Shown here: one piece after another, positions 8,493 through 62,283 of the stretch | Position numbering within the stretch: position 1 is the stretch's first letter | Layout of the letters: each line of letters starts with the position of its first letter | DNA from: Promethearchaeota archaeon | GTDB taxonomy: Archaea > Asgardarchaeota > Lokiarchaeia > Sigyniarchaeales > SOKP01 | Reading direction: 5' to 3' | Assembly: GCA_019058445.1 (NCBI GenBank) | Contig: JAHPZA010000001.1 | Span: 32,001 to 96,000, forward strand | Length of the DNA: 64,000 nt | The notes under the pieces: model-generated | Told to the model about the DNA's origin: nothing | Seen by the model: the letters and a program-made list of their open reading frames with translations, nothing else | Database searches by the model: none | Position numbers and translations under genes: made by a program

Positions 8493-8604
8493 GACACGGA
8501 TAGATCAATCCATAATAATATATATTTAAATAAGGAGACTTTTGGATCCAGGACCTAAAACAAGCTAAGAAAGAGAGTAGAGGGAGAAGGGCAAAATCCG
8601 TGTC
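8493..8604. other. Candidate structured RNA element closed by a 9-bp perfect stem
   Basis: GACACGGAT (8493-8501) is the exact reverse complement of ATCCGTGTC (8596-8604). It also shares AGGGCAAAATC with the island repeats. Confidence 0.35.
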
Positions 8605-19349: not shown

Positions 19350-20023
19350 TCAAAATAATCAGTTATTTTTTTACTTCCAACTTCTTCACGTAGGATTTTT
19401 TTTGTGGTTTCCCAGGTTGTTCTCACAAAGTATGGCACTTTTTTATTCTTTCTAATCCATTGCTTAAGAAAATCAGTAGTTCTTTTATCAGAGGGATATC
19501 CGGAGCCTATATCTCCATATTTCTGCTTTAACTTATCGATTATGGTGTCTCTAGTATCTTTAGCGATTATCGAAGCTGCAGAAACTATTGGATAAATATC
19601 ATCAGCTCTATGTTTAGAAATTATATTTGTTGGTTTATAGTGTAATAACATTTTTATAGCGTTTCCAAATCTTTTTTCATTTACATCTGCCGCATCTACA
19701 TAAATGACATCAGGTTGTAGTTTATTAATAATCTCTGCCATTTTTAATTCTTCTAATCGATTTAAGGTAATTTTATCTTTTTCTCGGTTATCAATTTCTT
19801 TCGCAGAAACTATTATAACCTCAAAAGAATGACAGTTCTGTTTAATTATTTGGGTTAACTGAGCCCTTTTTTTAGGGGAGAGTTTTTTAGAATCTCGTAC
19901 TCCAATTTCTTTTAAAATAGTAATTTTAGATTCATTAAAACAAACACCACATATAACGAGCGGTCCGATGACTGGTCCTCTGCCAGCCTCATCAATTCCG
20001 CATACAAGATTAGCTTTCTTCAA
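19346..20023 (-). CDS. rnhB: Ribonuclease HII
   Basis: GIDEAGRGPVIGP, DSKKL, VSAASIIAK, GSGYPSD; C-terminal PIP-box-like KKITDYF. Confidence 0.97.
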   Translation of the reverse strand: MKKANLVCGIDEAGRGPVIGPLVICGVCFNESKITILKEIGVRDSKKLSPKKRAQLTQIIKQNCHSFEVIIVSAKEIDNREKDKITLNRLEELKMAEIINKLQPDVIYVDAADVNEKRFGNAIKMLLHYKPTNIISKHRADDIYPIVSAASIIAKDTRDTIIDKLKQKYGDIGSGYPSDKRTTDFLKQWIRKNKKVPYFVRTTWETTKKILREEVGSKKITDYFD

Positions 20024-21038
20024 ATAATTCCACGAAATCCTTTTCAGTATCCATCTTTTCTAAATCTTTTAATTTAATTACAGGAACTTTAATATTATCA
20101 CTGGTTAATCTTATTTTATGATTTGATAATTTAAAATCATCATTCACAATGAAAAACGCGTTTTTATGAAAAAATTTCGCAAACGATCTAAGATGATGAA
20201 GGTTTAATTTTGCAACTTTTGTAGTGTCTTGGGAAAGTCCAGATAACACCGGATAAAATTCATCACCGGTATTTAAAACGTAATTATTCGAAGAAATGGA
20301 AAATTCAAAAGGGAGTTGTCCTTTCTTATACCAAATGGTTGAAACTCCAATATCCTCAAAAATATCTTGAAGATGTGATTCAACATCAGTAAGGTCTCGT
20401 TTTTGGGATTTTTCTTCTTGAATGAAGTTCACCTTAATTTGCCATTCGAATACGTTAATTTTTCTAAAAATTGTTTTGTCATCAAGGATTTGGAGTATTT
20501 TCTCAGCAATTTTTTGAGAAGGACGCATCGTTTCATTTTCATAAGAACATAGAGTTCGTTTTGTGACTCCTAACTGTTCAGAGATTTCCTTTCGAGATAT
20601 ACTTTTTTGTTCTCTTATAGATTTCACTAAATTTCCATCAAGGAAAATAATTTTTCCTCCTTTTCTACTCAAGCATGTAGGGTAGATATTACTATTCAGA
20701 ATCATAGATATTGTTCTACTTGAGATAAATGGCAGATCTTCTCGTAGATATATAGTATTATCTTCTAGTTTATTGTAGCGATTCTTGATTCCAATTAGTA
20801 ATGGATGACAGTCCAATAACATACATAAATTCTTTAAATTTTCAATGACAGATTCATTTAAATTATCGATATTAGGAAAAACTTTTACTAAATAAATCAA
20901 GTTATTCTTTTTTATTAAAAAGTCAACACAAAACTTAGTTTTCTTATTTAGTATATCATGAAAAGTTAAAATTTCATAGTTATTTTTCTTAAATAAGGAC
21001 TCAAGACCTTGAAGAATATTATCTACCATTATTTCCAT
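20010..21038 (-). CDS. Conserved archaeal HTH regulator (COG1395-like); chimera of element-supplied 5' part and host 3' part
   Basis: NID motif, LED..IY.R..LP.I, GG..IFLDG, Cro/C1 HTH (SRKEISEQLGVTKRTLCSYE). The first ~127 aa are paralogous to 54204-54605. Confidence 0.85.
   Translation of the reverse strand: MEIMVDNILQGLESLFKKNNYEILTFHDILNKKTKFCVDFLIKKNNLIYLVKVFPNIDNLNESVIENLKNLCMLLDCHPLLIGIKNRYNKLEDNTIYLREDLPFISSRTISMILNSNIYPTCLSRKGGKIIFLDGNLVKSIREQKSISRKEISEQLGVTKRTLCSYENETMRPSQKIAEKILQILDDKTIFRKINVFEWQIKVNFIQEEKSQKRDLTDVESHLQDIFEDIGVSTIWYKKGQLPFEFSISSNNYVLNTGDEFYPVLSGLSQDTTKVAKLNLHHLRSFAKFFHKNAFFIVNDDFKLSNHKIRLTSDNIKVPVIKLKDLEKMDTEKDFVELFEES
20659..20672. repeat. Left junction: CCT core plus arm TTCTACTCAA
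   Basis: Arm 20663-20672 matches the reverse complement of 54204-54213 (TTTTACTTAA) at 8/10. The CCT falls at the codon where protein similarity between the two gene copies ends. Confidence 0.6.
20838..20892. repeat. 55-bp direct repeat, copy 1 (1 mismatch to 54393-54447)
   Basis: ATTTTCAATGACAGATTCATTTAAATTATCGATATT[A/T]GGAAAAACTTTTACTAAA, read directly from the sequence. Confidence 0.9.
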
Positions 21039-21594: not shown

Positions 21595-22701
21595 TTAATG
21601 ATTTATTACAAAATCAATGAAAAATTCCATTTGTTTTTTTATAATTTCTACAAACTTAGTTCTTATTAAATTTAGAGAATTAATATTATGAAGTACCTTG
21701 TTCCTCAGACCATAGGTCAAGAGAAAACTATTATGGATTGGGTCATTGGAACGATAATTATTGTTAAGAACATGTATTAATGTATTTTCCAGCTGAGATT
21801 CCTCAAAGTCGGCATTTATACCCCGTTCTGTATTCCAGAGATAAATATCATTACATAATTTAATGTAAATATTATATAATGTGGCATTATTGCTCAATGA
21901 ACCCCTTAATTTTAGCTTACAAGTCGATTCAATCAAAAGACAAATATCACCTATTATGCTTGCTAAAGTCAATTCACCTAAGGTTGAGTTGAAATAATCA
22001 CTCCGTATTTTAAAATATCGGTTTAACTTATACATTCTAGATGTAAAAAAACAAATGTGATCTAACCACTCCATATAATTTGAACTTATTGTAGAAGGAA
22101 TATCTAAGAAATTCGAATAGAAATCATCAAAAGAATGACTACCTAAAAATTGATTTTCTATGAACCTTACAATCGATAAAACAGCTGAATCTTGAAGAGA
22201 TCTATCTAAAGTAATTAATTGAAATGATGGGGTTCTAGGAAAATTATCTTGCCCTCTATGTTTGAGGTGATCTTCTTTTAAACTAAGGTGAATTTTTAAT
22301 AATCCATCTTCAAATTTCGCATGTTTCAATTCATATCTTCCCATATTGTAGTAAGCGGCTCCTTTATGCGTATGGACTCCTACATCATCTTCATATTTAA
22401 TAATTTTTGTTAAAAAATCAACTGTATTCCAATATAGTTTTTTACTGGGGGTTCTTTGGTAATTACAAATTAGAGAGTAAAGAATATCGTCAATTGGGGC
22501 ATAATTAACGCCAATATCGGGGAGAGGAGTTAATGCAGCTTCAAATTGCTCAACATCCCTCTTTATTGGGTGAGGAAATGAGTTATAAAGGGCATAAAAA
22601 TTGCTATCAGTTTGGTGATTTAAATATTGCTGCAAATTTTCTTTCAAATTTTCTGATTGAATATCATCTAATCCAAAACTTCTGAAATCAATATCAATCA
22701 T
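21595..22701 (-). CDS. Putative HEPN RNase with a TPR-like helix
   Basis: C-terminal Rx4H motif LRNKVLH; HKGAAYYNMG TPR-like segment. Confidence 0.6.
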   Translation of the reverse strand: MIDIDFRSFGLDDIQSENLKENLQQYLNHQTDSNFYALYNSFPHPIKRDVEQFEAALTPLPDIGVNYAPIDDILYSLICNYQRTPSKKLYWNTVDFLTKIIKYEDDVGVHTHKGAAYYNMGRYELKHAKFEDGLLKIHLSLKEDHLKHRGQDNFPRTPSFQLITLDRSLQDSAVLSIVRFIENQFLGSHSFDDFYSNFLDIPSTISSNYMEWLDHICFFTSRMYKLNRYFKIRSDYFNSTLGELTLASIIGDICLLIESTCKLKLRGSLSNNATLYNIYIKLCNDIYLWNTERGINADFEESQLENTLIHVLNNNYRSNDPIHNSFLLTYGLRNKVLHNINSLNLIRTKFVEIIKKQMEFFIDFVINH

Positions 22702-23277
22702 TCTTAAATCTAGATTATAAATTATATCTTTTAATTAATATTTTACCTATTCATAATTTATACATTTGAGAAAAAGACCTTCAGTCTTTCGAATTGTTAA
22801 TTACCACAAAATCCATATTCCCCTTTATATGTAAAATATCACCTATCGCGGAATGAATAAGAAGATATTATGAAGTATAAATGGATCTATTAAACTGATG
22901 ATGGTAAAACAAAAAAAGCAAAAAGGAATCATAATATTTTGCAATTAATCATCGTATTTCTTTATTCATTACTAAATGGATATTCATTTATAATAGTATA
23001 AAATATTAAGGTCAAAATTGTTCATAGATGTATGAACTATTACAATAAAACATTTCATCCTTCTATGATTTATTGTATAATCTCATCCCACAAATTTATA
23101 TGCCTTACTTCTATTTAACATTTAAGAAAGAATCAAATAATTCAGTCTTACATTGGATTTCGCTCTGTTAAGACTTTTTTGGAAGCTTAACACTCTCTCT
23201 TTTTTGCATTTTGGATTGGATTTGGATTCCTTTCTTTTCCTATTTTTTAATTAGAATTTATTTAAATAATATTGGAT

Positions 23278-23500
23278 TTTAAAAAGGGCGACTCCTTGCC
23301 ACGCAACCTCAATACAAGGTCAAAAAATAAATAGGGGGAGGAGGGCAAAATCAAAGTGTATTTTCATACACTAACCAAAAGACAAAAATCCAGGGTGTGG
23401 CAGGAGTCATAGTTTTTGGTCTAACAATAATAATCTACAATAGTATTTATAAACTCTTAAGTGAAAATATAATATGGATTGGCAATATTCATTCCTCAGG
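23278..23500. repeat. ~220-bp direct repeat, copy 1 (copy 2 at 40615-40832)
   Basis: Near-identical over the first ~150 bp, then decaying similarity through the TATA-containing flank. Confidence 0.92.
23281..23422 (-). ncRNA. Candidate ~140-nt structured small RNA, copy 1
   Basis: Closing stem GACUCCUGCCAC/GUGGCAAGGAGUC; hairpins AGUGUAU-GAAA-AUACACU and ACCUU-GUAUU-GAGGU; TTTATAAA at 23446-23453; U5 tract at the 3' end; no ORF conserved between copies. Confidence 0.6.
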
Positions 23501-23759
23501 TAAAATATTCCTTCTTTTTATTTACTAAATGAGAAATAAAGCAATATCATTTTACAACTTAAAAGTTATTCAATAGATAATATTAAAGTTCTTATTTCCT
23601 TAATAGCTCTTATAATTTTGAATTAGAAAAGCAAAAAAATATTTATTTACTTAAATATAATTTTGTAAAGCCATTTATTATATGAATACATAAAAAAAAT
23701 CCATCCAATTTAAAAATATTGAAATCTATTGTAAACAATACAAATGAAGTGATATTATT

Positions 23760-24869
23760 ATGATATATCCAGAAACGATTGAAGTAAGCGATGTTAAAAG
23801 GATAGAGAGTCATGCTAATATAATATTATTGCCATCGGAGTTTTATAAATTTATAAATATTGAAGGTTTTAAAACTGTGTTTTTCAAGAACAGAGAACTA
23901 TTTGTGTTTAAAGATGGTGTATATATTGGGACACCGATATTAAATAATTATAAAACCTATGAGGAACTCGCAATAAAAATTGAATCGTTGCTGGAAAAAG
24001 GATTTAAAACACCCATTGAAATTTTAGAAGGATATCTTTTTGACTTAGAGGATTATAATTTATATTTAGAATTTAAGGAGAGTAGCTTTAAAAGATCGGT
24101 TTCACTTTCCGGAAATTTAAGAAATATAAACCGATCTGATTTTTCCCGTGAATATGAACTATTTTTAGAAGCTAAAAAATTTGGAAGTACTGAAAGAAGT
24201 ATTTTTCAAGAAGCTAAGAATGTTGGAATCCCCACATTTGAAGAATATACCAAATTCAAAGAGAGTGATTTTTACTATGGAACTCCTTCAAATTTTAATA
24301 GAAATAAAAATACTTATATTGAAAAGTATAGGGAATTCGTAGGAGCATCAAAAGGGGGTTTTATATCAAGAGATCAATATCTTGAAGCTAAAATGAAGGG
24401 ATTTAGCAATAAAGAAATTTATGATAAATTTATTAAAAGTGGTTGTAAAACTAAACAAGAATATGAAAATTATTTACCTTACATTGAAGATTTACCGAAA
24501 ATACTTGAACCAATGGGAGAAGATATCTTACATACTTTAAGAGAGGCAGATGAATTTTATAATAGTAAAAAATATGGAGAATTTTATAAAAAAAGGTATT
24601 TAATAATAGAAAACATTTCTAAAAGAGCTTGTGAAGAAATTCTTCAAAAAAGACCTAAAAATACAGTAATTGAGGAAATTTTGAATGAATTAGAATTAAC
24701 CACTAAGACTAAAATTGTAAATAAAGATAAAATGAAAAAGTATAGAGAATTGAGGAATGATGTAACTCATGAATTAAAGAATCCAATCACTAGAGAAATT
24801 GCAGATAATGCACGTACTTTTTTTGATGAATTATATACCAACTTAAAAGTCACACTTGAGAAAAATTAA
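23760..24869 (+). CDS. Repeat-containing protein with C-terminal HEPN-like domain
   Basis: Short EA(K)xxGF/I...Y repeats in the middle; LRNDVTH Rx4H motif near the C-terminus. Confidence 0.55.
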   Translation: MIYPETIEVSDVKRIESHANIILLPSEFYKFINIEGFKTVFFKNRELFVFKDGVYIGTPILNNYKTYEELAIKIESLLEKGFKTPIEILEGYLFDLEDYNLYLEFKESSFKRSVSLSGNLRNINRSDFSREYELFLEAKKFGSTERSIFQEAKNVGIPTFEEYTKFKESDFYYGTPSNFNRNKNTYIEKYREFVGASKGGFISRDQYLEAKMKGFSNKEIYDKFIKSGCKTKQEYENYLPYIEDLPKILEPMGEDILHTLREADEFYNSKKYGEFYKKRYLIIENISKRACEEILQKRPKNTVIEEILNELELTTKTKIVNKDKMKKYRELRNDVTHELKNPITREIADNARTFFDELYTNLKVTLEKN

Positions 24870-32562: not shown

Positions 32563-32821
32563 AGTGTTTTAAATAAAAATGAATTTACTTAATATATAGT
32601 ATCATTTTGAACTATTAAAACACTTATAAATTGCAAAATTATTATCACTTTGGTATAATAAATTTGTTAATGGAGGAGAATACTATAAAAAGTAATGTGC
32701 AATCTTCAATACTTAGAAATCCAATAGTGATTGCAGCATTTATTTAATCAACAATTTTTCTGTTCTTTGAGATTTTGATTATAAGACCGTTATCTTTTTC
32801 TATACTTTAGTATATATATTT

Positions 32822-34291
32822 TTAAGAATTAGGTATATATTTCAAAATATCTTCAATATAAGTTTTACATGGTTCAAAGTCTTCTTCAATAAATCTATTA
32901 TGGGCAAGATCATTTCTAATATTTGTTAACTTTTCAAAGGGTGCTTGAAATCTATATTTTTGATTAAAAAATTTTCTAAAGATGTTATTCCAATTCTTTC
33001 TATATAAAATTATATCGGAATAATTCATAAATGTGAGAAAATCTATTACTTGATATGTTCTTTTAGGTTCAATTATTTCTTTTTTTGATTTTAGGTCTTC
33101 TGCATCTTTTCGTATATCTTTTTGGATACCTTGATCCCACCAATCGTCACCATAATGTTTTTTTAATTGATTTTTAATAAATTGTCGAATTGTCAATTCA
33201 AAATCACTAATTAGATTATTAATTGTGTTCTTTTTTTCTCTTATATCTGTTATATTAACTCTAATATCTTTATACTCCTTTAAATAGTCTTTAGTTTCAT
33301 TTATGATACTTTCTGACTTTAATACAATTTCTTTTTTTAATTTAGTCAAAATAGTTGAATAATTATAGAAAACGTCATAATATTCAAATTCTTCATTATC
33401 AGAATTGATAATTTCAATAAACTTTAAATAACTGTTTATAATTTTAATAAGGTCAAATCTACCTCCCGCTTTAAATTGCTTATATAAAGACTTAAGCTTA
33501 AATCCATACTCAGATTTTTTTAATACCTTAAGGATATTTAAAGAATATAGATTCTGGATGTTAATGATTTCTATTTTTATCTCTTTTTGAAGATCTTCAT
33601 AATTAATGGATTCTGGATTATCTAAAATTGAGATAATACTATCATGTCTATCTTCAATATCATTATAAGCTTCTCTGATAATCTCATCAATTGTTAATTT
33701 TAATCGATTAATATATAGTTCTGTAATGTTAAATAATAAGAACCATGCTATGCAAAATATATAATATTTTAAAAAAGGATTTAAGAGGAATTCTAAAATT
33801 AAATCAGTATTTTTTTCAACATAAATCATTGAAAAATTTAATATAACTATTTCTATTAATATTAAAATGTAATATACTAATAGAAATATGCTAAGAATAT
33901 AGCCGCTAAATTTTATTCCATCAAAAATTCTAGCTTTAGAAAACCATGACTTACAACTCTCTAAAGAATTTTTATCGTCTAGTGTATTTCCAGAAAAAAG
34001 TATTTTTACTTCTCTATAGAATTTTTCATTATAATTTTTAACATTCTTTTTCCAAGGAAACTTAAATCTTATACCTATTATTACTAAAGGCCCTATAAAT
34101 GATAATGTAAATATGAGAAGAATTGTTACAAAAATTAAAAAATCTAAAGAATAATATAAAGAAGATAAAAATATGGCAGTAATAATATAATATATCCCTA
34201 ATACTTTTTCAAAAAATTTACCTTCTTTGATTTTTTTTCTACAGAATTCTATAAATTTCTCTTTATTAAATTCTTTCATTTTAATATTCAT
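32822..34291 (-). CDS. 4-TM membrane protein with C-terminal Swt1-like HEPN domain
   Basis: Four hydrophobic helices; FELTIRQFI...YGDDWW...DFLTF..Y..II...NW..IF...IRNDLAHNR. Confidence 0.75.
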   Translation of the reverse strand: MNIKMKEFNKEKFIEFCRKKIKEGKFFEKVLGIYYIITAIFLSSLYYSLDFLIFVTILLIFTLSFIGPLVIIGIRFKFPWKKNVKNYNEKFYREVKILFSGNTLDDKNSLESCKSWFSKARIFDGIKFSGYILSIFLLVYYILILIEIVILNFSMIYVEKNTDLILEFLLNPFLKYYIFCIAWFLLFNITELYINRLKLTIDEIIREAYNDIEDRHDSIISILDNPESINYEDLQKEIKIEIINIQNLYSLNILKVLKKSEYGFKLKSLYKQFKAGGRFDLIKIINSYLKFIEIINSDNEEFEYYDVFYNYSTILTKLKKEIVLKSESIINETKDYLKEYKDIRVNITDIREKKNTINNLISDFELTIRQFIKNQLKKHYGDDWWDQGIQKDIRKDAEDLKSKKEIIEPKRTYQVIDFLTFMNYSDIILYRKNWNNIFRKFFNQKYRFQAPFEKLTNIRNDLAHNRFIEEDFEPCKTYIEDILKYIPNS

Positions 34292-34482
34292 TGAATTTGT
34301 TTTCTAATATTATCTAAATTAAAATAACGAACATCTGAAAAATCAAACTGAAAAAACCTAAAAGAATGTAGGTTTTCAAATTTCTTCATAATAATCCTGA
34401 GATTTTTTTGCTTAATTTAAAACTAGCTAGTAAAAATATTAAATATCATTATTAAAGTATTAATCTACAAGAATAATGTAAA

Positions 34483-39744: not shown

Positions 39745-40521
39745 TTGAATCCTGAAAAAGCTCTGAAAATTCTTACCGAATTAATAGAAGAAATAAAAAA
39801 TACTAATTATGATCAAAGGAAAAGCGTAATAGAAAAAGCAAAAATGACAGTTAGAAAAATTTTTGGAAGTAATTCTATTAATTTTAAAGAATTTAAGGAA
39901 ATTAAATATGGATTAAGGTTCCTCACTTCTAATACGCCTAAACAGAGGTTTTATGAATATTGGGAAAAAACTGATAAAAAAAATATGATTTCTAAACTAT
40001 CTGCATACATTGATGAATTAGAATTAGATATTGATGATGATATTGTAAAACCTACAGAGATTGAGCAATTATCAGATCAAATTTTTATTGTACATGGAAG
40101 AGATGAAGAAATTAAGGAAGCTGTAAAAAATGTTCTAATTAAACTTGATTTAGAACCCATTATTTTACATGAACAAGCTAATAAAGGACGAACCATACTT
40201 GAAAAATTTGAAGATTATTCGAATGTAAGTTATACGATTATATTGTTAACTCCAGACGATAAAGGATGTTTAAAAAATGAATCATCTTTAAAAGAAAGAG
40301 CAAGACAAAATGTAGTATTTGAATTTGGATTTTTTGTTGGAAAATTAAGAAGGGATCATGTTTTTATTTTATATAAAGAGTCAGAATCATTTGAAAAGCC
40401 ATCAGATATAGATGGATTAATTTATTGTAATTACGATGAAAATGGAGCATGGAAAATGAAGTTAGTTAAAGAAATGAATGCTATTGGTTATCAAATAGAT
40501 GCGAATAAATTAATATCTTAA
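39745..40521 (+). CDS. TIR-like nucleotide-binding protein (Cap12/Pycsar-type TIR)
   Basis: IFIVHGRD, PIILHEQ...GRTI.EKFE, LLTPDD, RARQNVVFEFGFFVGKL (catalytic E), PSDIDG. Confidence 0.88.
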   Translation: MNPEKALKILTELIEEIKNTNYDQRKSVIEKAKMTVRKIFGSNSINFKEFKEIKYGLRFLTSNTPKQRFYEYWEKTDKKNMISKLSAYIDELELDIDDDIVKPTEIEQLSDQIFIVHGRDEEIKEAVKNVLIKLDLEPIILHEQANKGRTILEKFEDYSNVSYTIILLTPDDKGCLKNESSLKERARQNVVFEFGFFVGKLRRDHVFILYKESESFEKPSDIDGLIYCNYDENGAWKMKLVKEMNAIGYQIDANKLIS

Positions 40522-40614
40522 TCTACTTTTCGTTTATATTCCTACAAATCATTTTCAGGAAAATTTAGTAAATTTTCATATTTTTTGATGATTTTTATAG
40601 ATTTTTTTTGTATA

Positions 40615-40832
40615 TTTAAAAAGGGCGACTCCTTGCCACGCAACCTCAATACGAGGTCAAAAATCAAATAGGGGGAGGAGGGCAAAATCAAAGTGTATAA
40701 AAATACACTAACCAAAAGACAAAAATCCAGGTGTGGCAGGAGTCATAGTTTTTGGTCTAATAATAATAGTCTACAGTAGTATTTATATACTCTTAGGTGA
40801 AAATATTAAATAGATTGGCAATAATCATCAGG
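40615..40832. repeat. ~220-bp direct repeat, copy 2
   Basis: Matches 23278-23500. Confidence 0.92.
40618..40758 (-). ncRNA. Candidate ~140-nt structured small RNA, copy 2
   Basis: Same stems as copy 1. Differences fall in loops or linkers, or change U-G to C-G. A TATATAAA box lies upstream on the minus strand. Confidence 0.6.
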
Positions 40833-41142
40833 TGCAACATTGGATTTCAAAATCCGTGTTAGATATTCTTATACCATCTAGCATTGACATCTTCTGAAAA
40901 ATTTTTCCTGATAATAAGACCATGCATAGCTTTTAAACATTAAGAAAAAATAGGAAATAATCAATAAAGATTTACAATAGTAATATATGAATTGAATCTT
41001 TTGATCCGAGAATGAATTAAAGAGAAAATACATTTAGGATATATACTAAATGATAAAGAGATGAAAATATTCTAAATCTTGACAGACTCTTATTTTATAT
41101 TTATAAATTAATATAATAACAGAGTAACAAATACTTTCAAAT

Positions 41143-41733
41143 ATGTCGAAGATTTATTATATATATAAAAATCCTGTTTTTTGTATCTTAGAAAATGAAT
41201 TTGGGCTATCTATGATTGAGATAAAAATAAATGAATTTACCAGAAGATTTTTACTACTAATCAATTTTCTTGGGAATAACACAGCCAAAAATGAGAAATT
41301 TTTAAAAACAAAGAAAAGGTTTTTGAAATTATATTATTTATCAATGAATTCAAAAATTTTAGATAAAGTTTTAGAGATCTTATCAATAGAGAAAAGTGAA
41401 GATCAAGAAAGGTTTAGAAATAAGTTAAAGGATACTTTTTTTATATTTTTACATGGTGTATATTTAAAAAATTTCGCTAATAAAATTTCGGAATCAATTC
41501 GGCTTGATTTAATCAGAATTGAAAGAGATGGCAGGTCTTTTATTTATTATTTAACAAAAAAAGGATTAGAATTAGTAAAAAGTATCATAAAAGAAAATAA
41601 TTCTTCTACTCAAGAATATATATCTAATTTGAAAAAAATGAATCCTTTAAAAGAAATCTCTACAAAAATCATAACCAATATCATAGATAAATTAATAAAA
41701 AAAAAGACTAAAGAAATCGGAACAAGGGTTTAA
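41143..41733 (+). CDS. Winged-helix protein, possible ABC-3C/Lamassu middle component
   Basis: LIRIERDGRSFIYYLTKKGLELV wing motif; abuts the SMC-like gene. Confidence 0.5.
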   Translation: MSKIYYIYKNPVFCILENEFGLSMIEIKINEFTRRFLLLINFLGNNTAKNEKFLKTKKRFLKLYYLSMNSKILDKVLEILSIEKSEDQERFRNKLKDTFFIFLHGVYLKNFANKISESIRLDLIRIERDGRSFIYYLTKKGLELVKSIIKENNSSTQEYISNLKKMNPLKEISTKIITNIIDKLIKKKTKEIGTRV

Positions 41734-43743
41734 ATGTTAAAATATATGGTTAAAAGTAATTATTTAAAAATTAATAGAATTAAAATCGAAGGTATCTGGA
41801 CTTTAGACCATGAATTTAAAGGAGGATTAAATGCAGTTATAACAGCAAATAAACATGGAAAGACTACTTTGATTCAAACAATTTTAGCAGCTATTGGTTT
41901 TAGCGATAAAAGAAAAAATGAAGCTAAAAAAAATGCTAGTAAGGTCTATTTAGAACTTTTACTTAATGATAAACTAAAAACCATCGAGATGGACACTAAT
42001 GAAACAGATAAAGGTTATAAAACATATCTTTATTTGCAGGATAACGTGAATATTGATGGTTTTGATCAGAAAAAATCTAAAATGATATCAAGAAAAGATC
42101 TTAATGGATTGATTGAAAAAGAAATAGGATTAAATCCGTATATTTATCGCGACAAAGTAAATAAAAGATATCCATTAAATAATCTAAATCAATCTTATCG
42201 AGCTTTTTATTTAATGCAAGGAAAAGCTAATGAAATAATTTCTGATTATCAAGCACAAGATATTAGAAGGACAGTTACACAAAGTTTGTTAAGATCACCT
42301 AAAGAATCAAATGTTTTTGAGGATAAAAGTACGGACTATGGGAGTCAGATAAAAGAAAAGGATAAAGAAAAGGATGCTATAATTAGATCTACTAATAAGA
42401 AACAGCACCAAATAAAAGAATATGCGATTAATATAATTTCAGATAAAGAAAAAATTGAAGAAATAGATTTTAACAAGATTGAGTCAATTGAAAAGATAAT
42501 TATTGATATTGATTCTCAAATTAACGAGATTAGCAAAAATAAAAATGATTTAATTAATAAATTAAATGATATTTATGATAATGTGAAAAACCATGAGATT
42601 GTTCTAAAAATTGAGAAATTGGTAGAAGATCTTGATAATAATAAAAATCAAACCTTTAAGGAATCATTAATATTGGAGCAAGAAATTAATTCAATATCAA
42701 AAAAAATTCAATATTATCAAGAAGAAATAATTGAAATTAATAATAAATTAGATAAAAGAGATTATTCAATCCCACTAAGAGTTCATAATCCAACAAATAT
42801 TTGTGATAGATGTGGTCGAAAATTACCTACATCAAGAATAAATTTGGAAAAACAGACTCCTCCAAAATGTGCACTGTGCGGTCGTATAAGAGATGTTAAT
42901 CTCTTAAAGCCAGAAAAATTAAAAGATCGAAGAAAAATAATAGAAGAAACTTTGAATATTCAAAAAAATAAACTTAACCACAATGAAACAAAAAATAAAA
43001 AAGTACTTCAAAAAATATTAAAAATAAAAAATTCAATTGAAGAGAAAAAAAATGAAATTGAAAATTTAAGAAAAAATCTAACAAGGGAATCGACTAGTAA
43101 AATATTAGAAGAGTATAAGAAAATTGATGATGAATTAATCGATTGGAAAGAGAAAAAGATAAATGTATTTCAATACGCTGAAAACCTAAGAGAAATACCA
43201 AAACTCAATAAAGCCATTAGCAAATTAAGAAAGGAAAAAAAAGAATATGATGCTAAATTCAAATTTAAGGAAAAAATTAGAGAAGATTGGGAAAGAAATA
43301 TTCAATTCTTCATGAAAAAGGTAGGTTTTGAAGATGAAGGTGATAAAATAATCAAGTTAGATCCTAAAACTATGCTTCCAACTATAGATGGAAAGTCTTG
43401 GAAAAATGACCTTGTGGATAATGAAAAACATTTATATAATTTAGGTATGTATTATTCTTTTTTGAAATGCTCATTGATTCATCAAATAAAATATCCTCGT
43501 TTTATTGTGTGGGATTGCTGGAAAACAGGTGAATTAGATAAAGAAAAAGCTAAGCGAATAGGTAAAATATTAAAAGATCTTAATGAAAAATATAGTAATG
43601 ATTTTCAAATGATAATATTTACTGCTGACGAAATAATAGAAGGATATATACCGCCTGAAAATGTATTAAAGAGAAAATTTACAAAAGAAAAAGAAGAATA
43701 TTTATTTTTAGAAAAAGGTGTGATTAAATATTCCAAACCATAA
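41734..43743 (+). CDS. SMC/Rad50-like ABC ATPase with Zn hook (LmuB/ABC-3C-like)
   Basis: Walker A TANKHGKTT, Q-loop FYLMQG, coiled coil with CDRC...CALC, degenerate signature LVDNEK, Walker B FIVWD, ELD, FQMIIFT. Confidence 0.75.
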   Translation: MLKYMVKSNYLKINRIKIEGIWTLDHEFKGGLNAVITANKHGKTTLIQTILAAIGFSDKRKNEAKKNASKVYLELLLNDKLKTIEMDTNETDKGYKTYLYLQDNVNIDGFDQKKSKMISRKDLNGLIEKEIGLNPYIYRDKVNKRYPLNNLNQSYRAFYLMQGKANEIISDYQAQDIRRTVTQSLLRSPKESNVFEDKSTDYGSQIKEKDKEKDAIIRSTNKKQHQIKEYAINIISDKEKIEEIDFNKIESIEKIIIDIDSQINEISKNKNDLINKLNDIYDNVKNHEIVLKIEKLVEDLDNNKNQTFKESLILEQEINSISKKIQYYQEEIIEINNKLDKRDYSIPLRVHNPTNICDRCGRKLPTSRINLEKQTPPKCALCGRIRDVNLLKPEKLKDRRKIIEETLNIQKNKLNHNETKNKKVLQKILKIKNSIEEKKNEIENLRKNLTRESTSKILEEYKKIDDELIDWKEKKINVFQYAENLREIPKLNKAISKLRKEKKEYDAKFKFKEKIREDWERNIQFFMKKVGFEDEGDKIIKLDPKTMLPTIDGKSWKNDLVDNEKHLYNLGMYYSFLKCSLIHQIKYPRFIVWDCWKTGELDKEKAKRIGKILKDLNEKYSNDFQMIIFTADEIIEGYIPPENVLKRKFTKEKEEYLFLEKGVIKYSKP

Positions 43744-45868: not shown

Positions 45869-46282
45869 AATTATATCACAATAATAAAGTACCTAATTTA
45901 ATTTTACTTATTACGATTCTTATAATGATCAGAGAATTATTTAATTCTTTTTATAATAACTACCACACATTTTTCTGATTTATCTAAGAATACGTATGGT
46001 TTTTATTATTATATTAAGAATCAGCTTTTGATTATCTAAATAGTATTTTAATTAGATTACTAATGATTATAAAATAATCCATAATCTATATAAGAAGGGT
46101 TATGAAAATTGTCACAAGATTTAAATACTTATGTAATAATTATTAGACTATTGATAAAAATTTAATTCACGATTAAGTGAAGTTTTTGTCGGATAAAGGC
46201 ACAATTTAAAAGGTTTGAGGGAGTGTGAGAAGAATTTCAGCACGGGGTTATGTGAGAAATGAAACAAGAGGGGGATGTAGCA

Positions 46283-47083
46283 ATGTTTCCCAATAAAAAT
46301 CCAATAGTCAGTAGTGAGAGCAGGGGAATTGAAAAGCTACAATTTAATACTAAAGATTTTTTAGAAATAGATGAAAGGTATGAATCAGAAGTACAGCTTT
46401 ATTCAAAGAAAGTAGAGGTTTTAACCTCTCTACTATATCGAGCAATATCACTTTTGGAGTCACATCAATTACGGATAAACCCAACTCAAAAAATCTACAT
46501 AGAAACAGGAGTTCCTGCAATTAATCCCAAACTAAATACCCAATTAGCACAATTAAAGTTTTTTGAAGTCAATTCAACACTTACAAAACATATGTCAGCA
46601 TGGTTTAATCTAATTCAATTTTATTCGAGATGTTTATATACCTCTTATAATGACAAAAAATTTTTGCGAATGAAAGCTCAAACGTGGAACTCAGAGGTAA
46701 AAGACATGCACCCGCTTATGAACTTTTATTTAGGCGGACAATTCGGAGAACGAGTAAAAAACGAGGTTAGAATTTCAGATGGTATGGTAGATCACGTAGT
46801 TGATGGGATTCCGATTGAAGATAAATTGCTCAAGAAGTCCAAACACGAAGATATTGAATTAGTTATCTCTGAATTATTCCATGAACATTTAGATCAAGTC
46901 AATAGACAATCGGGGATTAGCGGATTTTCCATTTTATGCGTGGTAGATATACGCACCGATGTCAAACAGAATAGAATTAAGAGTTCTCCGTTAGCAAAAT
47001 GTTTTCGGATTTTTTTTGAGAATAATTGTTGGTATGCCACTTTTGTATTTCAGGCGTTTACCAAATCCCCCTCACAAATTTAA
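46283..47083 (+). CDS. Putative PD-(D/E)xK nuclease
   Basis: NEVRISDGMVDHVVDGIPIEDK (E...D...ExK); SD-like GAGGGGG before ATG 46283. Confidence 0.55.
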   Translation: MFPNKNPIVSSESRGIEKLQFNTKDFLEIDERYESEVQLYSKKVEVLTSLLYRAISLLESHQLRINPTQKIYIETGVPAINPKLNTQLAQLKFFEVNSTLTKHMSAWFNLIQFYSRCLYTSYNDKKFLRMKAQTWNSEVKDMHPLMNFYLGGQFGERVKNEVRISDGMVDHVVDGIPIEDKLLKKSKHEDIELVISELFHEHLDQVNRQSGISGFSILCVVDIRTDVKQNRIKSSPLAKCFRIFFENNCWYATFVFQAFTKSPSQI

Positions 47084-51412: not shown

Positions 51413-54211
51413 ATGGAAGATGAAAAGAAGCCAAAAAAGAGATCTCCCTTAGATAATTACGAAAGCGAAATGAAAAAAGATATGTTTGGACAAGTTGTCA
51501 AAAAGAAAGCAGGAGACACACCGAAAAAGCAGGAGGCACAACAAAAGAAAAAAACCCCTTCAAATTCATCCCCGCTAGACACATACGAAAGCAAAATGCT
51601 TCAAGATAAAGCTTCTACGGTTGTAAAAACACCAGATAATAATATTTCGATTGGACAGGGATACTGTTCAAATGAATCTATTTTAAATGCGTATGAAACA
51701 GAAATGTTAAATCAACACGTTTCGAACACCTTAGATCCTAATCGATCTGGAAGTAAGAAACCGAATAAAAAGAAAGCTCCATCTGACGAATGGAAAATCG
51801 TCATTTATGAAGCAGGATTAAAATATATAAGAGCATTAAAAGAGAACTTATATATCGATGACAAAATTATTAAATTGATTACTAGCAAGAAAAATATTTC
51901 AAAAATATTTAATCATCTCTTCATAATCTTCAATGAAAAGAGAGGCAGAAGAACTTTAGGTGTATTTTTACTTATTTTTTATGGTTTTTATGATTCTGAT
52001 AATTTTGAGGATTTACTCAACAAATTAAAGGAATTTTCAGATATGAGTTATGATAGACTCTCAGAATATGTTAAGAAACTGATTGATGACTTTTACGAGG
52101 TCACTGGTCAAGATCTTTATCTTATATGGATGGAGAAAGCGAAAACACAAGAACTTGAAAAAGCACAGAATTTCAAGGAGTTAATTAATAATGATGTTAA
52201 TATAATTCCAAATGAAAGACAAACTTTAGTGAATAACAAAATGGAAACACCAAACATAAATATTCCTAATTTTCGAGTGAGAGTAAAAAACCATTTCGAT
52301 TATATTTTAAGTTCAATTGAATGTACATCTAATCAAAAAGAAAATATTTCACTTAAATCTACCAATATACTAAAGGAGTTTATTTCGAGAGCAAAAAATA
52401 ATGAATTTACTATCTCTAGTAGAGCAGATCCTAAAATAATTGCTACCAGTATAGTGTATACAGCAATCGTATCAAATGAAAATATGCCAGAGATTAACAT
52501 GACTCAAGTAGCTAAATTAGGAGGTATAAAATCACCAAGAATTACATATTACTATAATATATATTTTAGAGAATTGTATCCTCGAATAACGTTTGACTCA
52601 ACCGTATACAAATTAACACCGATTAAATTAATTTTTTCGTTCTATTTTTTTCAACTGCTTTTAAATAGAAATATTAAGTTTTCCAATCAAATTCAAATAA
52701 TAAAAAAGGATATTTTGAATAACACAAATCTTCCAAAAGAATTAGATGAGGTAAATGTTAGAGAACTCCAAGAGATTGCGAAAAATTATCCCGATGTTTT
52801 TACTAAATATTTCAGCGATATGTTCAATATAGTGAGATATTTAATGGAATTAGCTACACTCTATAGAATAATTGGTGCTTCTATAAAAATCCTACCAATC
52901 GCAAAAATGTTTCATAAGAGAGGTATTAATTTAACACAAACGGTTGACGGTTTTCATCGATCTTTAACAGAAATTTTCGATTTTTTAAAAGAAAAGAATT
53001 TTAAGTTTTTTCCTAAACGAGTAGAATCAACAGACACTCCCAAAAAAGAGAGACCTGAGAAACAACGTCAGATGAAAAGAATTGTTGGAACAAGAATTAA
53101 ACTATATATAATAAATCATATTTATAACGGGAAATATTTTAAAAAAGGAAGAGAAGGCTGTCCAAAATGCTTGAATAAGGGTTTAAAAACGGATATTACT
53201 AGGATTAAGGGTTTGGAATTCCACCATCCTACTGAAATGAGAGAGATGCAATATACTGCGGAAAATCTCTATCAGTTATTTATTAACAATCAGCTTAATC
53301 CCTATTTTCTAGACGATCTGATAGAGGCAATGCAGAATGAAAAGGTACAATTATTATGTACTAACCACCATAACTTACTACATCATGAGGATTACCATGA
53401 TTTTAAATACTTAATTAATTGGGCAAACATATTTTCTTATCCAGCAGAGATCATCCGCTTATTAATCAGAGTTGCGGTAGATAATTTTCATAAAACTAAA
53501 GACTTAACTATTGACGAAAAAAAAGGGAAGCGAAGAAATTTACGATCTAAAATAAAGAAAAAATATGTTTTAGAGTTTTTTAATGGAAGATATTGCCCTG
53601 CTTGTGGAAAATTCAACACATTGGATCATTTAACAGCATTCCATTTTAGTCATATCGATCAACGTAACGAAGATATTGATATTCTTAGATTATTTCGAGA
53701 TAAATCATGTTCTAAAATAGTTAAAGCATTAGTAAATGAGGGTGGTGGATTTGTTTGTGGAAATTGTCATACAGTTTTTCACTTTGATAAATATATCCCC
53801 CTTTTAGAAGAGATTTTTGAGGATAAAGCAATAATAAACAATATTATAGAAGATTATGAAAATGTCAGAGATAAATATTCCCCTATATATAACGCCTCAG
53901 TTGGAGACCCATTAAAAACATCCAAAGCTCAGTACGGCAAGTTTCAAAACTATCTAATGTCTATTTATGCAATTTCAAATTCTGGTAATGACGTTACACA
54001 TTCTACTTTAAGCGAATATATGGGGTTGGCAATACCATCTATATTCAAGTTTTTTAAACAAAATAAGAAGCTAGTTAGCAAGTATATAGATATTAACATA
54101 GGAAGTTCAGGTTGGAACGGAGAGGAAACTAAATATTCTTTAAATGCAGACGGAGAAGAACTAATAAGGGTAATTAATCACTTTAGGGACTATTTCAGTT
54201 CTATTAAGTAA
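51413..54211 (+). CDS. 932-aa protein: TFB-like cyclin/HTH repeat, two Zn-binding HNH-like domains, C-terminal winged helix
   Basis: ADPKIIATSIVYTA...INMTQVAKLGGI...ITYYY resembles TFB repeat 2; CPKC..LEFHHP..LLCTNHHNLLH; CPAC..FHFSHI..FVCGNCHTVFH; VTHSTLSEYMGL...YSLNADGEELI. Confidence 0.7.
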   Translation: MEDEKKPKKRSPLDNYESEMKKDMFGQVVKKKAGDTPKKQEAQQKKKTPSNSSPLDTYESKMLQDKASTVVKTPDNNISIGQGYCSNESILNAYETEMLNQHVSNTLDPNRSGSKKPNKKKAPSDEWKIVIYEAGLKYIRALKENLYIDDKIIKLITSKKNISKIFNHLFIIFNEKRGRRTLGVFLLIFYGFYDSDNFEDLLNKLKEFSDMSYDRLSEYVKKLIDDFYEVTGQDLYLIWMEKAKTQELEKAQNFKELINNDVNIIPNERQTLVNNKMETPNINIPNFRVRVKNHFDYILSSIECTSNQKENISLKSTNILKEFISRAKNNEFTISSRADPKIIATSIVYTAIVSNENMPEINMTQVAKLGGIKSPRITYYYNIYFRELYPRITFDSTVYKLTPIKLIFSFYFFQLLLNRNIKFSNQIQIIKKDILNNTNLPKELDEVNVRELQEIAKNYPDVFTKYFSDMFNIVRYLMELATLYRIIGASIKILPIAKMFHKRGINLTQTVDGFHRSLTEIFDFLKEKNFKFFPKRVESTDTPKKERPEKQRQMKRIVGTRIKLYIINHIYNGKYFKKGREGCPKCLNKGLKTDITRIKGLEFHHPTEMREMQYTAENLYQLFINNQLNPYFLDDLIEAMQNEKVQLLCTNHHNLLHHEDYHDFKYLINWANIFSYPAEIIRLLIRVAVDNFHKTKDLTIDEKKGKRRNLRSKIKKKYVLEFFNGRYCPACGKFNTLDHLTAFHFSHIDQRNEDIDILRLFRDKSCSKIVKALVNEGGGFVCGNCHTVFHFDKYIPLLEEIFEDKAIINNIIEDYENVRDKYSPIYNASVGDPLKTSKAQYGKFQNYLMSIYAISNSGNDVTHSTLSEYMGLAIPSIFKFFKQNKKLVSKYIDINIGSSGWNGEETKYSLNADGEELIRVINHFRDYFSSIK

Positions 54212-54216
54212 AACCT
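54204..54216. repeat. Right junction: arm TTAAGTAAAA plus CCT core
   Basis: Inverted partner of 20663-20672; contains the stop codons of both the 932-aa gene and the truncated regulator. Confidence 0.6.
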
Positions 54217-54392
54217 CTGCGAGCGAGTATGTGCGGATATTTCTGTTCTTTGAGTACATTCTCTAACGTCTTTAATGTTATGAAGGGTAATTCCTCTCTT
54301 ATATAAATTGTATTATCTTCTAGATTTTGATATCTGTTCTTTATTCCGATTAAGAGTGGTTTTGAATTTAATAAAGCAGACATAAGTTTTAT

Positions 54393-54447
54393 ATTTTCAA
54401 TGACAGATTCATTTAAATTATCGATATTTGGAAAAACTTTTACTAAA
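54393..54447. repeat. 55-bp direct repeat, copy 2
   Basis: 54/55 identical to 20838-20892. Confidence 0.9.
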
Positions 54448-54761
54448 AAGATGGAATTATCTTTTTTTACCAAAAAATCAAAACAAAACTTAGTTCTTTT
54501 GGTAGATTCCTCGAAATGAAAGGTTTCGAAATGTTTTTCACTTAAGAGGGCAGCAATTCTTTGTATTATGCTATCAACTGTCAATATCCTAATAGTAACA
54601 AGCAAAATCTTATAAAAAAGTTTTTCTGTTTAAGGTAATAATATTAGTTGGTTTATTTCTAATCAACTATTAAAGTAGAATCCTAGTTTTTCGCATCATA
54701 TTTACTCGTTAATTTTTTTATTAAAAATTCATTTTAATAAATATTTAAAAATAGGTAAAAG

Positions 54762-59749: not shown

Positions 59750-59861
59750 GAGAAGGAGATCAAAATTCAATCCAAAACTCCAAATACGAGGGAGTGTTAG
59801 GCTTTAAAAAGGCTAACGGGGGCGAAATGTAGGCTAGGATGGAATTAATAGATTCCTTCTC
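59750..59861. ncRNA. Candidate structured small RNA
   Basis: Closing stem GAGAAGGAGATC/GATTCCTTCTC; internal hairpins ACTCC..GGAGT and GTTAGGCTTT..AAAGGCTAAC; a GC-rich patch in an AT-rich intergenic region. Confidence 0.45.
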
Positions 59862-61863: not shown

Positions 61864-62283
61864 ATGTCCATGCGACAATACAATACGGAGTTAGGGCTCT
61901 TAATTGATAAAATCGTCAAAGTATATCTTGATGACGATAAATTTTTCGTTGGTCAATTAAAAGGCATCTCAGAAGATTCAAATTTGATTTTAATTAATGT
62001 TAAAAATGAGAAGAAAAAAACTTTTCCAAAAATACTTGTAAAAAGTTCTTATTATAATTATGTAAGTTTAGAGGAAGAACCATTTCCAATGCAGGCGCTT
62101 GCTGATAGAATAGCTAAAATTTTCTCTCCGGGTCATGTTGATTTAAAAGAAGAACAGAATGTCATTTCAATTTTAAATGGAAAAATTATCGTAGATGAAG
62201 AGGGCGTGAGAGGCTCTGGTCCTTCGGCTGATAGAGTAAGAAAAATTTTTGAGCAATTTAAAATGGATCTTGAGGGAGATTAA
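61864..62283 (+). CDS. Lsm/Sm-like RNA-binding protein with C-terminal extension (SmAP3-like)
   Basis: Sm1 motif LIDKIVKVYL..DKFFVGQLKGI...SNLIL.N; C-terminal domain ending G.GPSADRVRKIF. Confidence 0.8.
   Translation: MSMRQYNTELGLLIDKIVKVYLDDDKFFVGQLKGISEDSNLILINVKNEKKKTFPKILVKSSYYNYVSLEEEPFPMQALADRIAKIFSPGHVDLKEEQNVISILNGKIIVDEEGVRGSGPSADRVRKIFEQFKMDLEGD

Follow-up and report, generated by a model that had tools for sequence, protein, structure and literature searches.

The window analysed here, a 64-kb stretch of Lokiarchaeia DNA, carries two copies of what is very probably a real RNA gene, belonging to a conserved, uncatalogued small RNA family of Lokiarchaeia that we designate family A. 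Copy 1 (23281–23410, minus strand), delimited by its fold and by a covariance-model match of 150 bits, comprises about 120 nt inside a closing helix plus a pyrimidine tail. Copy 2 (40618–40746, minus strand; core 40711–40730, P2 40692–40709, P3 40642–40658) gave a covariance-model match of 140 bits. The two copies, spaced by 17,337 nt, are 94% identical along a stretch of 117 nt and 88% identical in the 108 nt next to it. Both had been recognised in an earlier note on this DNA (23278–23500 and 40615–40832), but they are not the only ones, the host genome (4.6 Mb, 31% G+C) holding at least seven full copies and several divergent ones. A degenerate 3' half of a further copy (8529–8598, minus strand, E 0.001) directly follows the stop codon of ELP3, and could be either a remnant or a 3' UTR-derived form. 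Scanning with Rfam 15 matched no family at gathering score in the window (best E 2.3, in 22700–24000), and no description of the RNA family was found in the literature covered, most subscription papers lying outside the search.

Following copy 1 along the minus strand, a TATA-like box (23444–23453), recognised by sequence and by the family-wide enrichment described below, lies within an upstream promoter region (23411–23492) that was duplicated together with the RNA in three recent duplicates, two in the window and one on contig C9, and predicts a start approximately 20 nt upstream of the closing helix; the corresponding box of copy 2 is at 40780–40789 (minus strand). The closing helix P1 consists of 12 bp and one bulged A, its 5' arm (23397–23408) pairing with 23290–23302, and is variable in sequence while the pairing is kept. 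It is followed by the invariant core CUGGAUUUUUGUCUUUUGGU (23374–23393), which includes the first Sm-like tract and a second U4 tract and may form a weak GGAU-UUUU-GUCU hairpin, by the hairpin P2 (23355–23372), with a variable loop and a covarying stem, and by a GAUUU(U/C)GCCCU box with a pyrimidine tract (23334–23352). A third, not conserved, U-tract runs into the hairpin P3 (tract and hairpin 23305–23328, hairpin 23305–23321), which is missing from some genera, and the 3' arm of P1 ends in the terminator-like tail CCCUUUUU (arm and tail 23281–23302, tail 23281–23289). The minus-strand TATA box, bulged 12-bp closing stem, two hairpins and U-run end previously proposed were thus all located in copy 1.

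Folding of the minus strand gave z-scores of −4.0 and −5.2 for the two copies, with none of 200 shuffles equalling them, and the plus strand of copy 1 folds too (z −3.0). As already pointed out, the two copies differ by changes that preserve pairing (P2 loop GAAA to UUUU, P3 U-G to C-G) and by a 1-nt indel that shortens the sole small ORF from 19 to 12 aa. A covariance model was used on Asgard genomes, and the helices covary among homologues. Over 27 homologues, 95% of the cells are paired; two-sided changes number 20, where shuffles give 4.6, and pairing falls to 35–45% when the structure is slid along the alignment. Once the alignment is widened and fitted to the model, compensatory change is seen at each of the 17 pairs.

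The minus strand, also favoured in the earlier note, is supported by an excess of G-U over A-C mismatches isolated within helices, both in P1 (29:9, p 0.002 in the stricter count) and in P2 plus P3 (65:24). A looser count of P1 went the other way (G-U 177, A-C 272), which we put down to the inclusion of non-helical junction positions. Upstream of the RNA on this strand, 93 of 162 loci moreover have a BRE-TATA-like motif, versus 39 and 29 in two controls, and the excess persists when each context is counted once (25 versus 14). The sense orientation of a group II intron present in one homologue (see below) also favours the minus strand. The distance from TATA to helix varies, suggesting that a leader may be trimmed. 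In the flanks of some members, not all (L012, L014, L018, L002), A-rich leaders are complementary to the pyrimidine linker over up to 13 bp, a possible alternative fold of the precursor.

The exact 17-nt U-rich core occurs in 124 of the 134 genomes of the host's Lokiarchaeia family (reversed control, 0). Outside that family it is present in two of the phylum's 265 other genomes, in one case as a chance match inside a gene. In total, 193 core-bearing loci of the host family were counted, a handful of them chance matches. The 17-mer missed a sister family of genomes, recovered by the covariance model through a member in a closed genome of 6,035,313 bp; a variant core is present there in 11 of 14 genomes, another host being a closed genome of 4,324,194 bp, and the two closed sister-family genomes have three or four structured copies each. 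The sister-family RNA has the same closing helix, P2 and P3 with one extra hairpin. In other Asgard groups a broader covariance model, under strict filters, gave no convincing match, to be read as "not found" and not as "absent". A possible divergent member in a third family (L348, G038:C149:69-181; 22 bits, E 0.5) has a closing helix, P2 and the core-like UUUUUGCCUUUUGG. AT-rich divergent copies of family A, with the core kept and every stem changed, were noted at L036:8429 and 9030 (G000:C6:656428 and 657029, 600 nt apart), L037 and L134, and one copy on contig C4 has an altered core. Family-like copies are also carried by an IMG/VR contig of 224,826 bp classed as viral (L197) and by a contig binned as Patescibacteria (L272), possibly host DNA or mis-binning.

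Across both families of genomes solely A-U4/5-GUC-U4/5-GG is invariant, the lengths of its two U-tracts being swapped between them, and the second-best kept element is GAUUU(C/U)GCCC, 3' of P2. Three AU4-6G motifs are indeed found in each window copy within 126 nt, as reached by only 8 and 10 of 2000 shuffles (about 0.5%), and had been read as three Sm sites in single-stranded linkers. Folding predictions, however, place the first tract in a weak hairpin of 4 bp capped by a UUUU loop, and it is the only invariant one (GAUUUUUGU in the host family, UAUUUUGU in the sister family, in both followed by U as in U7); the second and third are not conserved, one further AU4-6G being found in 84 of the 193 core loci and two in 11. 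Likewise, CCUCC, the basis for a suggested anti-Shine-Dalgarno regulator, is present in 102 of 193 homologues and its tract folds into a hairpin in the sister family, and the alternative pairing of GACCAAAA is possible in three of 193. The three-site, anti-Shine-Dalgarno and alternative-pairing readings thus fit the window copies and not the family.

Seven copies in six genomes (L186, L250, L282, L292, L329, L335 and L336) carry, in the pyrimidine tract, an insert of 29–30 nt framed as a bulge-helix-bulge, in which a helix of 4 bp (CCCU with GGGG) is flanked by a 3-nt bulge at each end, both on the 3' sides; the window copies are without it. Such a motif characterises substrates of the tRNA splicing endonuclease (PMC7714728), an enzyme that the host genome encodes. 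Excision at the standard cut sites restores the consensus tract exactly in the insert-bearing copies, and the insert stems vary in sequence and still pair, all at a single shared position. The outer exon helix amounts to about one pair, and a loose bulge-helix-bulge scan, having matched five members on each strand, does not discriminate. The claim of an intron thus rests on the exact restoration of the consensus, and by this and by their geometry the inserts fit tRNA-type introns.

An intron of a different kind was found in G026:C117 (L122:4312 onward), where a group II intron (RF02012, 61 bits) lies just 3' of the core, in sense orientation, and includes a small stem-loop with CUAACC, the complement of the family's GGUUAG. 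A second paralogue in the same genome (L123) is cut short at that very site by the end of its contig, which suggests that the group II intron homes to the conserved core. Matches to GTGCG after the core were ordinary P2 stems except in G026. Two kinds of intron would mark the element as RNA.

One copy per genome is syntenic over nine genera, its neighbours being a gene for a 130-aa membrane protein on one side and, on the other, one for a radical SAM protein with an HMPTM zinc ribbon, which we take to belong to the tetraether synthase family; this synteny does not reach the sister family. Further paralogue classes adjoin malate dehydrogenase or helicase-like genes, and many are in variable regions. 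The orientations of the neighbours are even (20/18/15/14 over 67 independent gene contexts), and in some genomes inserted genes separate the RNA from its radical SAM neighbour. The near-universal core and the syntenic copy argue for a housekeeping RNA, and the random orientation of its neighbours for a stand-alone gene. These data are very hard to reconcile with a short leader peptide (MTPATPWIFVFWLV...) or with a cis-acting element in a leader or 3' UTR. An AUG is often present ahead of P1, and some upstream stretches complement the pyrimidine tract; the core is, however, in mixed frames with respect to that AUG (57/51/21, with no AUG in 64), ORF lengths scatter, third codon positions are invariant, and the orientation of the neighbours and the intervening genes do not suit a cis-leader. 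A cis-regulatory leader or riboswitch was rejected for want of a fixed co-oriented position in the same 67 contexts.

Both window copies lie in a low-GC island (approximately 20–46 kb) with HEPN, TIR, AAA-ATPase and Lamassu-like genes. Related genes for HTH-type regulators (20010–21038 and 54204–54605, the second shorter; 221 nt at 76% identity) flank the island. The HEPN (Swt1-like) gene at 32790–34298 is duplicated at 92% identity at G000:C9:208013-209524, in an island with the third near-identical RNA copy, and the start of the ORF at 46259–47083 recurs near C9:191820. A TIR effector gene (PDC-S35 model) and, after it, genes like LmuC and LmuB occupy 39745–43743; the genes next to them are not assigned to a complete Lamassu system.

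This setting had led to the view of an element-encoded antitoxin for the HEPN/TIR cargo. An RNA antitoxin or defence regulator for the HEPN, TIR and Lamassu-like genes, of the type III toxin-antitoxin kind, would agree with the position of both window copies beside HEPN, TIR (PDC-S35) and LmuB/C-like genes and with the clustering of extra copies in variable regions. We nevertheless regard it as very improbable, since the conserved copy is vertically inherited in a housekeeping locus beside the radical SAM lipid enzyme, the paralogues adjoin malate dehydrogenase or helicase-like genes, and the neighbours are unrelated from copy to copy and randomly oriented, with neither tandem repeats nor a fixed toxin partner; the viral contigs gave one family-like match only. 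The "element-encoded" part of the proposal is, on the same grounds, not supported, and a type III toxin-antitoxin RNA was set aside as the copies are single units with unrelated neighbours.

A non-autonomous mobile element (a MITE, or a REP- or attC-like DNA site) could be thought of, the family being multi-copy, with paired ends and with recent duplicates that share a unit of 225–240 bp (about 100–120 nt upstream plus the RNA, ending at or just past the U-run). We consider this reading largely refuted and give it hardly any credence: the paired ends covary and are not fixed, neither target duplications nor terminal repeats were found in register at the recent duplicates, integrase genes are far off on other contigs, one copy is syntenic in nine genera, and an RNA is indicated both by the G-U bias and by the tRNA-type introns. 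By these features the family matches neither a MITE nor an IS-derived element. For the flanks of the island, no relative with the same flanks was found for an empty-site comparison.

Just 45 nt from the 3' end of copy 1, and tail-to-tail with it, lies a second RNA-like gene of about 113 nt, here named family B (23124–23236, plus strand). Its long closing helix encloses the invariant loop AUUGGAUUUCGCCCU, which has one mismatch in this copy, together with a single hairpin and a pyrimidine linker. A more divergent copy is at 59750–59861 (minus strand), and a weak, degenerate family B-like motif (40838–40855, plus strand) is head-to-head with copy 2. The exact 14-mer of the loop is present in 99 of the 134 host-family genomes (reversed control, 6/161), and the terminal helix, varied in sequence, in 54 of 62 collected copies. 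Its strand was assigned by analogy and by a weak G-U excess (G-U 13, A-C 5, p 0.10). Family B is multi-copy (loci L392–L421), and a short form occurs in many genomes of genus g11 (L369–L390). Families A and B have the GAUUUCGCCC box in common and are often within a few kb of each other in islands.

These features are consistent with A and B being one class of small RNPs, defined by a closing helix and the GAUUUCGCCC box and bound by a lineage-specific or other RNA-binding protein rather than by an Sm protein. The two families are alike in distribution, build and box, and are restricted to Lokiarchaeia families; in both the host and the sister family of genomes, predictions put the longer U-tract of the family A core in a UUUU tetraloop that is closed by U-G and sits on a stem of 4 bp, with the same energy in the two (−1.7 kcal/mol) and the stem strands exchanged, which resembles a shape recognised by a protein. 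We hold this to be rather unlikely, if worth retaining: the copies are not accompanied by any particular protein family, a search of 37 host-family genomes gave no Ro60, and the box is only partly kept in family A (AUUUYRCC in 95 of 193). A Y RNA was specifically rejected, TROVE being found in 0 of 37 host-family genomes, with one weak match in the sister family, and the stem covarying.

Base pairing offers another explanation, in which the open loops would serve as seeds that pair with mRNAs, Shine-Dalgarno sites among them, or with rRNA, such as the GGGGUGAAAUC loop of 16S helix 23. Sibling sRNAs indeed keep their seeds fixed while the stems drift, the exact predicted excision of an intron placed in the pyrimidine tract implies that this tract may matter, and the box shared by A and B can form 11–12 contiguous pairs with the loop of 16S helix 23, a pairing that common variants keep. 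However, no duplex of family A beats shuffles (p 0.1–0.6 at 16S helix 23; B core p 0.03–0.24), and the 16S loop changes in the sister family with no matching change in the RNA. Complements of the core near start codons or on coding strands are not enriched versus permuted controls, and CCUCC is present in about half of the copies, with GGAGG in 89 of 3282 genes. On balance we judge it unlikely that the RNA acts by base pairing, although the match to helix 23 stays a lead. An rRNA guide was discarded, as the duplex of a 25-nt core with 16S (p 0.008) dropped to p 0.25 for the 20-nt invariant core and was gone in other rRNAs; so was a C/D or H/ACA guide, there being no conserved boxes and the longest Watson-Crick match of the core to 16S/23S being 7–8 nt, no better than shuffles. 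No 16S rRNA gene was detected in the host assembly (92.6% complete, 10 contigs), in which about five tRNAs are clear; the missing 16S rRNA gene and tRNAs are perhaps unassembled.

The reading we tentatively prefer, while holding it to be somewhat short of probable, is that family A is a housekeeping, multi-copy small RNA acting in trans, whose U-rich core would be bound by the archaeal Sm ring. The fixed parts are short and U-rich and are carried by a scaffold of free sequence, the two U-tract lengths swap between families, and no significant complementary target was found in 16S or 23S rRNA or near start codons, a picture typical of RNAs that bind proteins. The host SmAP1, encoded on contig C2, has intact pocket motifs (DxxMN, IRG). 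SmAPs bind U-rich RNA (PMC12817955), and the family A core resembles the Sm site of U7, AUUUGUCUAG (PMC11417402). The host genome has three SmAP genes. The one in the window (61864–62283, plus strand), named in the earlier note among the SmAP proteins to try for binding, is of the SmAP3 type, without canonical uridine-pocket motifs and not linked to the RNA; SmAP1 is the better candidate.

Several observations weigh against an Sm-ring ligand. U-rich motifs are cheap at 31% G+C, and the Sm-like tract is predicted to be partly paired in the host family, being inside the 4-bp hairpin in 84% of members (mean pair probability 0.76), whereas the sister family has it open. In every member P1 closes around the site, unlike in snRNAs, where the Sm site is open and has an adjacent 3' stem-loop (PMC6954390); a preformed homoheptamer thus could not thread the RNA as eukaryotic Sm rings do. 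The invariant stretch of 20 nt exceeds the need of an Sm site, family B keeps the GAUUUCGCCC box alone, which is not an Sm consensus, and the RNA is found in just two families while SmAPs are widespread across archaea.

If an Sm-ring ligand is admitted, the following model can be proposed from the sequence data. The RNA would be transcribed from the minus strand by its own BRE/TATA promoter, as the motif enrichment suggests, with a short A-rich leader that is probably trimmed back to the closing helix. The helices, as covariation shows, are a sequence-free scaffold, which would hold open two conserved elements, namely the A-U4/5-GUC-U4/5-GG core and the GAUUUCGCCC box. The core would most likely bind SmAP1, either in a stable RNP or by titrating the ring from other U-rich RNAs. 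Extra copies would arise by duplication of promoter and RNA, the unit of about 225–240 bp being that observed, and gather in variable islands, where they may change the dose rather than serve the neighbouring genes. A bolder version, which we consider improbable, is that the stable, closed-helix small RNPs of A and B are a Lokiarchaeia class in which an archaeal Sm ring is loaded onto family A at an internal site like that of U7 or U2, and the tRNA-splicing machinery matures this RNA, making it a prokaryotic forerunner of Sm-class snRNPs.

Eukaryotic Sm/Lsm proteins derive from Asgard archaea, and in the literature searched no dedicated RNA partner of an Asgard Sm protein is described; family A, by comparison, is multi-copy, occurs in nearly all genomes of two Lokiarchaeia families and keeps a single U-rich motif invariant. 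Even leaving Sm aside, tRNA-type introns in a small RNA other than tRNA, which is also targeted by a group II intron and accompanied by a box-sharing sister family, would be new archaeal RNA biology.

Among known systems, the type III toxin-antitoxin RNAs (ToxI, CptI, TenpI) are comparable as small structured RNAs, family A lying near nuclease-like defence genes in the window, but family A has neither a tandem array nor a fixed toxin, and its conserved copy is in a housekeeping locus. Y and vault RNAs are alike in length (about 100–130 nt), paired ends, pyrimidine-rich loop and 3' CCUUUU tail; the stem sequence of family A is not fixed and there is thus no Ro box, unlike in Y RNA. Non-tRNA substrates of the archaeal splicing endonuclease include pre-rRNA, one mRNA and one 5' UTR (PMC7714728). 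They share with our copies the 4-bp helix with two 3-nt bulges around the insert, whereas the host of the insert is here an uncatalogued small RNA.

Stand-alone paralogues with a fixed core, drifting stems and U-richness are also seen in the SmAP/Lsm-associated small RNAs of archaea and in the Hfq-dependent sibling sRNAs of bacteria, such as Qrr1-5; from both of these family A differs in having no target found, a closed multibranch fold and, in some copies, tRNA-type introns. The Sm-class snRNAs (U7, U2) resemble family A in the short U-rich motif AU4-5G(UC) next to a 3' stem-loop, in small size and in the Sm-fold proteins of the genome. On the contrary, the site of family A is inside a closed loop, partly paired in the host family, and followed by UC and not by a purine, with no cap, heteroheptamer or known guide region. 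The features tested place the RNA outside the Sm-class snRNAs, Y RNAs, guide RNAs, type III antitoxins and MITEs, and yet it may work like an Sm-bound small RNA.
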